Under the pieces are notes generated by a model. It saw only the letters and a list, made by a program, of their open reading frames with translations, searched no databases and had not been told where the DNA came from. A stretch of DNA of 62,538 nucleotides, the filler included, from Diploschistes diacapsis (taxonomy: Eukaryota): NCBI GenBank assembly GCA_023645945.1. It is 13 parts of 13 records of this genome, joined end to end, with 100 filler letters (N's around TTAATTAATTAA, not from the genome) between each part and the next. Parts side by side here need not be neighbours in the genome. Positions count along the whole stretch, not along the records: positions 1 to 3,014 come from JALAIB010002027.1; 12 more parts are not named here. One strand, given 5' to 3'. Of this stretch, positions 698-2,654 are shown piece after piece. A program made the position numbers and the translations under genes. The stretch's first letter is position 1, and the number at the start of each line of letters is the position of its first letter.

Positions 698-1250
698 ATG
701 ATCTGGGCCAAATTGGAATTGGTGTTGGCGTCGTTAGCCGTTGCGCATGCTTTGGCAGCTTATGACAATGACCCAGAAGACTTGGCATACCGTTCTGTCG
801 ATAACCATAACGACCTAGCATACCGTTCTGTTTCCGATGACCACAATGACCTGACATTGCTACCAAGAGATTACGATCCGGAACAAATTAATCTCGGGAT
901 TCGCACTCCGGTGTACCGGAATTGGTTAACTCGTCGTGCTATTATTCCTTGCACGTCCTGCGGAAATTGGTTTTCACCGCGAGAGCGCGAAAAGCAGTGT
1001 GGAACATGTGGAGATGCCGCTAGGGCCCCTAAGGCCCCTAAGGCCCCTAAGGTCCCTAAGGTCCCTAGGCCTATGGGCCGCACCGGCCCCTTGACTCCGG
1101 ACGAGAAAAAGCGTGCGGCCGCAACACGAAAAGAAGGTGCATGTCCAAAGCACAGGAGGGCAAAGAAGCCAGTATACACAACCTCGCTGCTTATTCCGAA
1201 GAATATGCTGACAAACCTAGTGTACACGCGACGAAAGATGTGGGGACTGA
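698..1250 (+). CDS. Secreted pre-pro-protein with CxxC-x12-CxxC zinc ribbon and basic half-Zn2Cys6-like tail; join(698..1171,1221..1250), 167 aa
   Basis: ATG 698 gives hydrophobic signal MIWAKLELVLASLAVAHALAA; DLAYRS repeats; LTRR then AIIPCTSCGNWFSPREREKQCGTC; 49-nt intron GTATAC..GCTGAC..CTAG gives terminal exon CTRDERCGD*. Confidence 0.75.
1019..1072 (+). repeat. 9-bp coding tandem repeat (G[C/T]CCCTAAG) encoding APK/VPK linker
   Basis: gcccctaag x3 then gtccctaag/gtccctagg, read directly. Confidence 0.9.
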
Positions 1251-1385
1251 TATCTTTTCGGACTCAGATCGTAGCTCCCAGCCTGTGTCAGTTATTTCTC
1301 GTTGAGTGGAATTCGTATTGGATGTGGAACTAAGCAGCACAGAAGAGTGTTACGTTGTGTCAACAGTGCGCTATTTTTTGTTCGT

Positions 1386-1980
1386 TGTGACCATAAATTG
1401 ATTAGTCTCATGTATAATACGGTGTTAGGATCATGATTAAAGTTTGAGTTAAGCAAAGCGAAATGAAACGAGACTCAAGTAGAATCAATAAAACTATATA
1501 GCTGTATTACGTGGCTTTCTCGACAGTACCTTATACCAATTCGACGAAAAGGAAGCGTATGAAAGAGATGGAGAATAGGACGGTAAGTAGCAGGATGGTC
1601 AGATCTAATTAGGAGGCAAGATTAGACAAGCGCAGGAGTAAGAGCAGGACGAGGACATTGTCATGACATAACAAGAACAAATGCGATAGCGATGCGATAC
1701 ACTACACGGGCAGATGAACAATTCACAACCATTGATTACACTATAGGAATTTCTTTTTGAAAATTCCCTTTGGTCACTACGAGGTCTGCTTCTAGGACAA
1801 GTCTCCTCCGTAGGAATTTCCGAGGGAGACTGGGGGGATCTTGAACTGCAACTTTGGGACCTTTCGCAACCTGGCTGGGTGATCGTGCTATAAAGTTTGC
1901 TTGCGCCCCGGCTGCTAACTTTCCCAAACATAGGCTAATGTAATGGCGCATTGCCATGACCCAACGTGTAACCTGTTACA
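1386..1980 (-). mobile_element. Possible ~595-bp LTR-like element between the two secreted-peptide genes
   Basis: On the minus strand begins TGTAAC and ends GTCACA; no convincing ORF; no matching TSD found. Confidence 0.4.
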
Positions 1981-2017
1981 GATATGATGACCCAACGTGT
2001 AATCTGTTACAGATATG
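1956..2017. repeat. 31-bp tandem duplication
   Basis: ATGACCCAACGTGTAA(C/T)CTGTTACAGATATG twice, one mismatch. Confidence 0.9.
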
Positions 2018-2287
2018 ATGTCTCTAAGGTCGGTGTCCAGTAAAGGTAGTGGGTATTTTTCAGAGCGGACATTTCAAGAGTACTGTTAATTAGGATTTCC
2101 TAGGGATTCCACGCTTGTTCGTTTGATTACTGATGCTTTAGACGAAAACGTAGTTGCTCTTGGATGATTCTAATTCTCCTGCTATTAGAAGATCACTTCG
2201 CCATAATATACCATCATTGTATATATATTCCAAAGGGTGGCCTCTGGCTTCCACTTCAGCAAGTCTTTTCCCACATTCATACACATC

Positions 2288-2654
2288 ATGCAGCTTTACA
2301 AATTTCTTCCAATCCTCCTGAGCGCCGTTGGCATGGTTGATGCTCTCAACATCAAACTATACGAAAGTGACCTCCAAGAGCGCCATGATCCAGATATAGA
2401 TATTGGACATTATCTAGCGGCACGAGAAGTCGAGCTTACACGAAAAGAGGCGATTCTCGAAAAACGCGAGGCTGCGTTCCTGTAAGTTGACAGTCTGATT
2501 CAGAGCTTTATTAACACCTTTCAGCAATGCCTTGCATCGTCGTTCAAACACCAAATGTGGTAACTGTGGCCAGTTTGAAGTTCCCTCTAAAGGAGGGCGC
2601 TGTAGGTTTTGTCATGTTAAAATAGTAGAGATCCACCCAGCGGGAAGCCATTGA
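2288..2654 (+). CDS. Secreted pre-pro-peptide with CxxC-x11-CxxC zinc ribbon; join(2288..2481,2525..2654), 107 aa
   Basis: Signal MQLYKFLPILLSAVGMVDA; 43-nt intron GTAAGT..TTAAC..TTTCAG removes the apparent stop; exon 2 reads NALHRR-SNTKCGNCGQFEVPSKGGRCRFCHVKIVEIHPAGSH*. Confidence 0.78.

Follow-up and report, generated by a model that had tools for sequence, protein, structure and literature searches.

LxxR is described as the motif at the Kex2-cut pro-domain junctions of the fungal effectors SnTox3, ToxA and SIX1/4/6, and the selectivity of Kex2 is given as mostly Arg at P1 with Lys or Arg at P2, Leu at P4 being an expanded preference (PMC8528282; bioRxiv 10.1101/2020.05.27.120113). For proteins with such a Kex2-processed pro-domain (K2PP), the rule of Outram et al. 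asks for an LxxR, KR or RR site that is preceded by more than 4 residues and leaves over half of the secreted protein C-terminal to it (bioRxiv 10.1101/2020.05.27.120113); this and our other comparisons with published work refer to excerpts of the papers cited. Our study reports on a pair of small, co-oriented genes from Diploschistes diacapsis (assembly GCA_023645945.1), a lichen-associated ascomycete, which lie on the first contig (JALAIB010002027.1; 3,014 bases) of a 62,538-nucleotide stretch of DNA referred to here as the window. From their sequence, our best reading is that they are a lineage-restricted pair of K2PP-like precursors of small secreted peptides.

Two further described systems bear on this locus. 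Le Marquer is said to have devoted a study in 2019 to Kex2-processed repeat proteins (KEPs), which include pheromones and the precursors of peptides made on the ribosome and then modified post-translationally (RiPPs). The rule of Umemura (2020) for KEPs is a minimum of 3 tandem repeats, each 8 residues or longer, between KR, KK, RK or RR sites (PMC7329392). The effector AVR-Pii of Magnaporthe oryzae holds one Zn through the ligands C-X2-C-X12-H-X-C (PMC9618136); its residues 20-43 are disordered in the crystal and its C-terminal domain comprises about 27 residues (PMC9618136; bioRxiv 10.1101/2023.10.18.562914). A full-text literature search returned no paper that joins Kex2, CxxC, secretion and zinc, and, among the papers listed by a search on fungal secreted zinc-ribbon effectors with a signal peptide, no title or abstract opening names such a family.

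Both genes encode the same succession of parts, as the initial annotation had claimed: a hydrophobic N-terminus, a pro-region with repeated LxxR motifs, and an end of the form LxRR-x4-CxxCG-x11/x10-CxxC. They occupy positions 698-1250 and 2288-2654 of the contig, and their features are as follows.

698-1171, plus strand: gene 1 exon 1, 158 codons, with putative signal, pro-region, Cys-knuckle and basic tail (open reading frame, codon score)
698-760, plus strand: putative signal peptide of gene 1, residues ~1-18/21 (hydropathy; cleavage site by eye)
761-937, plus strand: gene 1 acidic pro-region with five LxxR (motif scan, shuffles)
782-793, 815-826, 857-868, 893-904 and 926-937, plus strand: gene 1 LxxR motifs LAYR, LAYR, LLPR, LGIR and LTRR
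938-1009, plus strand: gene 1 AIIP, then CxxCG-x11-CxxC (motif scan)
1010-1171, plus strand: gene 1 basic tail with APK/VPK repeats (sequence)
1172-1220, plus strand: gene 1 proposed intron, 49 bases, unconfirmed (donor GTATAC; CTGAC 8 bases before TAG)
1221-1250, plus strand: gene 1 proposed exon 2, 9 codons and stop, with two extra Cys (translation)
2288-2481, plus strand: gene 2 exon 1, putative signal peptide and part of the pro-region (sequence, codon score)
2372-2383, 2414-2425 and 2456-2467, plus strand: gene 2 exon 1 LxxR motifs LQER, LAAR and LEKR
2482-2524, plus strand: gene 2 predicted intron, 43 bases (GTAAGT ... TTAAC ... CAG)
2525-2654, plus strand: gene 2 exon 2, with LHRR, SNTK, CxxCG-x10-CxxC, a 13-residue tail and stop (motif scan, AlphaFold2)
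2532-2543, plus strand: gene 2 last LxxR, LHRR

The first LxxR starts at residue 29 in both proteins, and the last is an LxRR that is followed by exactly 4 residues and then CxxCG. The motifs of gene 1 start at residues 29, 40, 54, 66 and 77, the last being LTRR, with spacings of 11, 14, 12 and 11 residues; those of the spliced gene 2 start at residues 29, 43, 57 and 68, with spacings of 14, 14 and 11. Their numbers far exceed those in shuffled pro-regions (5 against a mean of 0.75 for gene 1, P 5e-5; 4 against 0.82 for gene 2, P 0.002), and of all that is seen in the pro-regions it is this enrichment that departs most from chance. The description of these regions as acidic also held, with net charges of -5 and -2, and the mature parts that follow are basic (87 residues and +13 in gene 1; 36 residues and +3 in gene 2). 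Disorder-promoting residues make up 58% and 50% of the two pro-regions, and the AlphaFold2 model of gene 1 has a predicted local distance difference test (pLDDT) score below 50 across residues 27-58 and 62-80, which is most of its pro-region. Across all six frames of the 62.5 kb window the pattern CxxCG-x9-12-CxxC has two occurrences, one in each gene of this pair, and it was absent from all 30 shuffles.

Local alignment of the spliced proteins scores 51, against 26 +/- 4.4 for 1000 shuffles, only one of which reached 51; when the signal, pro and Cys segments are preserved in the shuffling, the score is 53 against 20 +/- 9.9, and again one in 1000 reached it. The two proteins are collinear from the N-terminus through the last Cys, and the LxRR-x4-CxxCG...CxxC end is the best-conserved part of the pair. 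At the DNA level no similarity was found between the genes (best E 0.88), so that the duplication is old if they are paralogues, and a protein similarity above that of shuffles fits the diverged paralogy first proposed. The observation of the pair is confirmed as statistically sound.

Our structural and statistical analysis suggests a model for the locus, to which we give a little less than an even chance of being right: an old, diverged pair of paralogues in a lichen-associated ascomycete, encoding small secreted, kexin-processed zinc-knuckle pre-pro-peptides. The hydrophobic N-terminus would direct the protein into the endoplasmic reticulum (ER) and then be removed. In the Golgi, a Kex2-type kexin would cut after LTRR80 of gene 1 or LHRR71 of gene 2, and possibly also at the three or four upstream LxxR, which would turn the acidic pro-piece into pieces of 11-14 residues. 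Cleavage would release a basic peptide of 87 residues (net +13) or 36 residues (net +3), which the acidic pro-piece may mask until then. At the core of the peptide, two CxxC knuckles would share one metal ion, most likely Zn, in the manner of a zinc ribbon, and the released peptide would bind a partner molecule outside the cell. That the transcripts are spliced, and that the products are secreted, cleaved, bound to metal and directed at a target, is inferred, and an effector or toxin role would be purely conjectural.

The first step of this model depends on the N-termini, both of which are putatively signal-peptide-like: each has Lys as its fifth residue, a core of 12-16 hydrophobic residues, small residues at -3 and -1, and a very acidic stretch after them. 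In gene 1 the Kyte-Doolittle hydropathy over 10 residues peaks at 2.29 (residues 6-15), the small residues at -3/-1 are found in AHA or ALA, and AlphaFold2 places a helix at residues 3-22 (pLDDT ~73). In gene 2 the putative signal peptide spans residues 1-19, with VDA before the cut and a hydropathy peak of 2.19 at residues 6-15. It is highly improbable, in our judgement, that the products are instead small membrane-anchored or intracellular zinc-ribbon proteins, whose N-terminus would serve as an anchor or have no targeting role. Such proteins would agree with the nearest sequence and structure look-alikes, all of which are intracellular zinc ribbons or fingers, and with the Lys/Pro-rich tail of gene 1, which resembles nucleic-acid-binding tails; the signal peptides are, moreover, putative assignments read from the sequence. 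The short basic n-region, core, small -3/-1 residues and acidic stretch of both genes argue against this, and it is not evident what an excess of LxxR would do in a protein of the cytosol. By the positive-inside rule, N-termini of this kind place the C-terminal part on the lumenal side.

In the secreted, kexin-processed reading, the pro-region can be compared with that of K2PP effectors. The initial annotation had taken LxxR as a mark of Kex2-processed effector pro-domains, and this use of the motif is indeed described (PMC8528282; bioRxiv 10.1101/2020.05.27.120113). K2PP effectors have a signal peptide, a disordered acidic pro-domain, an LxxR or dibasic end and a Cys-containing mature domain, a layout that the present genes would share if their putative signal peptides and the predicted disorder of their pro-regions are real; they are a processing class and not a homologous family. 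At the last sites of the present genes, LTRR and LHRR pair a P4 Leu with a dibasic P2-P1. In gene 1, 87 of about 146 residues lie after this site, in agreement with the K2PP rule; in gene 2, only 36 of about 88 do, too few for the rule, and it is the earlier LxxR at residues 29 and 43 that agree with it. The described K2PP members are cut at one junction, whereas the present genes carry a ladder of four or five LxxR, and the predicted mature parts of the pair are far smaller (36 and 87 residues), bear a zinc-ribbon-like CCCC motif and have no K2PP match. Neither the LxxR ladder nor a tiny CCCC mature domain is described for K2PP proteins in the excerpts cited above.

The ladder also brings KEPs to mind, which, like the present genes with their putative signal peptides, combine a signal peptide with several kexin-type sites at short, regular intervals. 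A precursor of the KEP or RiPP type would yield the LxxR-bounded peptides of 11-14 residues as its products and would use the Cys part as a follower or recognition domain. The regular spacing of the LxxR motifs agrees with this, as do one duplicated unit in gene 1 (NDLAYRSV, twice) and the many short peptides that come from class 1 Kex2 substrates (PMC8528282). The units are otherwise unlike one another and unlike between the genes, however, and the tandem-repeat rule fails here: dibasic sites in the pro-region number one in gene 1 (RR79-80) and two in gene 2 (KR59-60 and RR70-71). A Cys domain follows the ladder, unlike the arrangement in KEPs, and conservation between the two genes is highest at the LxRR-x4-CxxCG...CxxC end. 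The contig holds no DUF3328 gene, which says little for a contig of 3 kb. We regard this alternative as very improbable.

The cysteine region is the presumed product of the K2PP-like precursors. It has the form CTSC-x12-CGTC at 950-1009 in gene 1, where both knuckles are of the CxxCG type, and CGNC-x11-CRFC at 2556-2612 in gene 2; both genes thus contain the two CxxC knuckles, 10-20 residues apart, of a generic zinc-ribbon motif. The AlphaFold2 model of gene 2 exon 2, made from the single sequence, has a mean pLDDT of 68, rising to ~77 over residues 11-30, which hold the knuckles, and places isolated beta-bridges beside both of them. Searches of Pfam, of the sequences of solved structures, and with Foldseek and VIA-align matched neither a curated family of zinc ribbons nor a solved structure at a significant level. 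Below threshold, Pfam gave HypA (E 0.21) and DUF7129 (E 0.48) for the Cys region of gene 1, and the sequences of solved structures gave a DUF35 zinc ribbon (3irb; E 0.2) as the best match of gene 2 exon 2, and FYVE (E 0.37) and an archaeal Zn-ribbon protein (E ~1) for that same region of gene 1. Such weak matches to the Cys stretches (E 0.2-2) are mostly to zinc ribbons and zinc fingers, the other matches listed being low-complexity or haem-protein ones. Foldseek returned no match at E <= 0.001 for the gene 2 exon 2 model (best E 1.1), its top matches being nearly all small zinc fingers, and with VIA-align a single chain out of 48,161 attained Z >= 2, namely the zinc finger of Nup153 (Z 2.5). 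The nearest ESM Atlas clusters of gene 2 exon 2 are NinF (0.90) and YhfH (0.89), with only 121 and 97 of 256 features shared; these small CxxC proteins are weak look-alikes and serve as a lead only. Generic zinc ribbons and rubredoxin-type knuckles (DUF35 3irb, archaeal Zn-ribbon RNA-binding, FYVE and NZF/RanBP2-type) resemble the present domains in their two CxxC(G) knuckles 11-12 residues apart, but they are intracellular domains with neither signal peptide nor pro-region, and none matches significantly. As far as sequence and model go, the Cys part is zinc-ribbon-like and nothing beyond that.

The released peptide would probably be held together by one Zn through its four Cys, with two disulfides as the main alternative. 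In that case the same secreted, kexin-processed precursors would yield a cationic stapled hairpin resembling an antimicrobial peptide, an outcome that we consider unlikely. It draws on the oxidising environment of the ER in which the protein would fold, on the acidic pro-piece and basic mature part, which are the classic layout of a cationic antimicrobial precursor, and on the failure of any zinc family to reach significance. The CxxCG signature, which is typical of rubredoxin-type metal knuckles, speaks for the metal instead, being present in both genes and twice in gene 1, and the sub-threshold matches of the Cys stretches are mostly to metal-binding domains. Secreted effectors stabilised by Zn also exist, as AVR-Pii with its one Zn demonstrates (PMC9618136).

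For the metal-bound peptide, the nearest functional analogue is AVR-Pii/ZiF, and by this analogy the locus may work in a similar way. The initial description of the AVR-Pii family reportedly included an [LI]xAR motif upstream of CxxC...H, which would parallel the LxxR-then-CxxC order seen here. AVR-Pii is a small secreted protein in which the N-terminal part is disordered and 12 residues separate the two ligand pairs, an arrangement that the present precursors would resemble. The ligands themselves differ, as the initial annotation had said of known Zn-binding effectors: the second pair of AVR-Pii is H-x-C (C-X2-C-X12-H-X-C), while the present genes have CCCC (C-x2-C-x12-C-x2-C and C-x2-C-x11-C-x2-C). 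The hosts differ as well, the one being the blast fungus and the other lichen-associated. No AVR-Pii chain is found among the solved-structure sequence matches at E <= 10 for either gene, nor among the Foldseek matches listed, and given this and the different ligand pattern we do not file the locus as a ZiF member. A more specific proposal would be that a secreted four-Cys rubredoxin-type Zn knuckle, released from an LxxR-ladder pro-piece, is aimed at the algal partner or at competitors and is convergent with ZiF effectors; this seems to us conceivable but doubtful.

The gene models behind these proteins differ in how much they owe to splicing. The initial annotation held that each gene becomes fully visible only after splicing, which fits gene 2 and does not hold for the layout of gene 1. 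The unspliced open reading frame (ORF) of gene 2 ends at 2485, and the frame of exon 2 contains no ATG and does not open before 2499; splicing aligns gene 2 collinearly with an uninterrupted stretch of gene 1 and thereby lends internal support to the intron at 2482-2524, whose GTAAGT donor is a perfect one. In two other sequencing runs A2513 is a G, which changes TTAAC to TTGAC and in our reading still fits a branch-site pattern. In gene 1, the ATG at 698 opens an unspliced ORF that runs to 1333 (211 residues) and contains the whole layout within 698-1171, and the proposed intron thus affects only the last 9 codons; none of the 29 GT..AG candidates between 1000 and 1330 offers a better donor. 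A codon score trained on nine long ORFs of the window, which gives 0.165 +/- 0.097 for known coding chunks, is 0.153 for exon 1 of gene 1 and 0.232 for exon 1 of gene 2, and the five other frames are negative for both. The basic tail of gene 1 has a single match, a low-complexity one to the tail of ribosomal protein L35A (E 0.23). After the proposed splice, the tail at 1142-1250 shows the pattern C-x2-H-x6-C-x5-C, which we take to resemble a fungal Zn2Cys6 cluster in its first half, except that His stands where the second Cys would be; together with the four knuckle Cys, these ligands would make 8, enough for two metal sites.

A number of observations weigh against the reading as secreted zinc-knuckle precursors. 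In the secretory pathway, which is oxidising, it is common for CxxC pairs to form disulfides instead of metal sites. The spliced gene 1 product would contain 7 Cys, an odd count, and the AlphaFold2 model of gene 1 residues 1-107 is unusable, with a mean pLDDT of 52.8. A basic P2, the main Kex2 determinant according to PMC8528282, is absent from most upstream LxxR, which may be cut less well or have another role. The donor of the gene 1 intron, GTATAC, is weak, and a 54-codon ATG ORF in an alternative frame of the plus strand (1141-1305) lies over the 3' end of the gene with a coding-like codon score of 0.138; it has no Pfam match, and its presence leaves the 3' end of gene 1 uncertain. The codon score of gene 2 exon 2 is poor, at -0.146. 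Searches for relatives gave nothing further to set on the other side: a profile of both genes run against 1.84 billion representative proteins recovered only the window's own 262-residue ORF, as did word-indexed searches of 5.8 billion clusters with gene 1 exon 1 at near lengths, and at shorter lengths the latter gave 7 candidates, none of which scored. The word-indexed search with gene 2 produced no candidate, and of 599 pattern matches of gene 1 exon 1 in JGI metagenome contigs 0 were confirmed. To the same side belongs a copy of gene 1 in a sequencing run from a related organism, where 64 other letters replace 956-1074, that is, most of the Cys motif and the APK repeats, and where the listed differences over 12 codons comprise 9 missense, 2 synonymous and 1 nonsense change (codon 63, CAA to TAA).

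Other searches and copies complete this picture. ESM Atlas had no usable match for gene 1 exon 1. A JGI metagenome match of gene 2, 23 residues in a high-GC bacterial contig, was judged spurious from the ORFs of that contig. A search of sequencing runs over 480-2760 listed no RNA run. Among DNA contigs, the locus is almost complete in a lichen-metagenome run (X1), from which the assembly may derive, and parts of it are found in a rock-metagenome run (X2) and in the related-organism run (X3). Gene 2 is covered over 2213-2457 in X2, with 5 differences and no indels, and over 2306-2561 in X3, again with no indels, where one contig differs at 9 places and another at 23; its identity in these contigs is ~91-98% over the covered stretch. 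Gene 1 is represented in one X3 contig by 779-955 with 21 differences and by 1075-1403 with 71 differences and 5 gaps, and C>T accounts for 9 of the 16 differences listed; those listed are the best-supported ones and 223 more exist, so that the X3 picture is a partial one. On the differences listed, the X3 copy of gene 1 looks broken and is not an intact orthologue. In one X3 contig, position 609 is joined to 2713 with 39 other letters between them, skipping the two-gene segment; the join is a weak one, with 24 bases on its shorter side and repeats on both flanks. The family is made up of two genes, both on a single repeat-bounded contig of 3 kb, and of close copies elsewhere. Of the family claimed by the initial annotation, the two look-alike genes remain, and the protein, cluster and metagenome-contig searches add no further member.

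These results bear on the possibility that the pair is non-functional, either chance or decaying ORFs in repeat-bounded, fast-evolving DNA or the pseudogenes of a former gene pair. The lack of relatives in any database searched would be expected in that case, and so would the X3 copy of gene 1, with its stop, its mostly non-synonymous changes and its lack of an alignable Cys segment; the weak donor and ambiguous 3' end of gene 1 and the codon score of gene 2 exon 2 (-0.146) point the same way. It is harder to see how two ORFs with no DNA similarity would come to share a collinear, multi-part layout far above shuffles. Both genes are, moreover, intact in the present sequence, with ATG, stop and coding-like first exons; gene 2 has a canonical predicted intron exactly where one is required and is free of indels in two other runs, and neither gene is RIP-like (RIP, repeat-induced point mutation) in composition. 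We hold non-functionality to be improbable on balance, and retain the precursor pair as the preferred interpretation.

The surroundings of the pair are as follows.

1-600, no strand: left flank, high-copy dispersed repeats (summed contig depth, internal repeat)
2655-3014, no strand: right flank, tandem repeat of GGCGAAAC type, followed to the contig end by high-copy, AT-rich DNA (RIP-type indices 1.0 and 0.78)
3015-3114, 6114-6213, 9204-9303, 34985-35084, ... 59497-59596 (12 places in all): N44-TTAATTAATTAA-N44 linkers

The window consists of 13 contigs placed end to end, with the 12 N44-TTAATTAATTAA-N44 linkers spaced at ~3 kb except for one stretch of 25.7 kb. As the linkers lie between contigs, the true context of the two-gene locus is limited to bases 1-3014, and neighbourhood across linker positions is meaningless. 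A Pfam scan of 14 other ORFs of the contig, on both strands, gave nothing but one chance-level match (E 0.035); no known gene is hidden in another frame.

The initial annotation had placed the genes among RIP-ed DNA and what it took for solo LTRs. The flanks are high-copy repeats, and the right one is RIP-like, but the genes themselves are without RIP-type indices. In runs X1-X3 the summed contig depth of the left flank exceeds that of the gene region by a factor of up to hundreds. A dispersed repeat of ~150 bases lies at 44-357, with a second copy at ~6312-6452 on the minus strand; it has no tRNA and no Rfam match, and its identity as a tRNA-derived element was rejected on these empty scans. 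It may be an element resembling a miniature inverted-repeat transposable element (MITE) or a short interspersed nuclear element (SINE). Directly 3' of the gene 2 stop, a tandem GGCGAAAC(C)-type repeat occupies ~2698-2752, beyond which the DNA is AT-rich and high-copy with RIP-like indices. RIP-type dinucleotide indices are present in the right flank and in the next contig and absent from both genes, the thresholds for these indices being values of general knowledge. On other contigs, between 6214 and 37999, the window encodes XAP5, NDUFA5, Mrp51, an SH3/AIM3-BBC1 protein, an adaptin, a chitin synthase, a histone deacetylase and the Hrq1 helicase, which are ordinary ascomycete housekeeping genes.

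Judged by its sequence, the pair would belong to the small secreted proteins of fungi, a known class, and no relatives of it were found in the databases searched. Small secreted proteins confined to one lineage are very common in fungi, and the pair would hold little surprise for specialists unless expression or biochemistry follows. If our reading is true, it would provide an example of a pro-domain made of repeated LxxR sites, and the succession of signal, LxRR, x4 and CxxCG...CxxC would serve as a simple rule for finding short genes with introns that have escaped annotation and are absent from protein databases. The range of small zinc-stabilised secreted peptides, which have so far come from a few plant pathogens (AVR-Pii/ZiF), would also be widened. 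To our knowledge, the molecules exchanged between lichen partners are poorly known, and peptides of this kind would then extend to a lichen-associated fungus.

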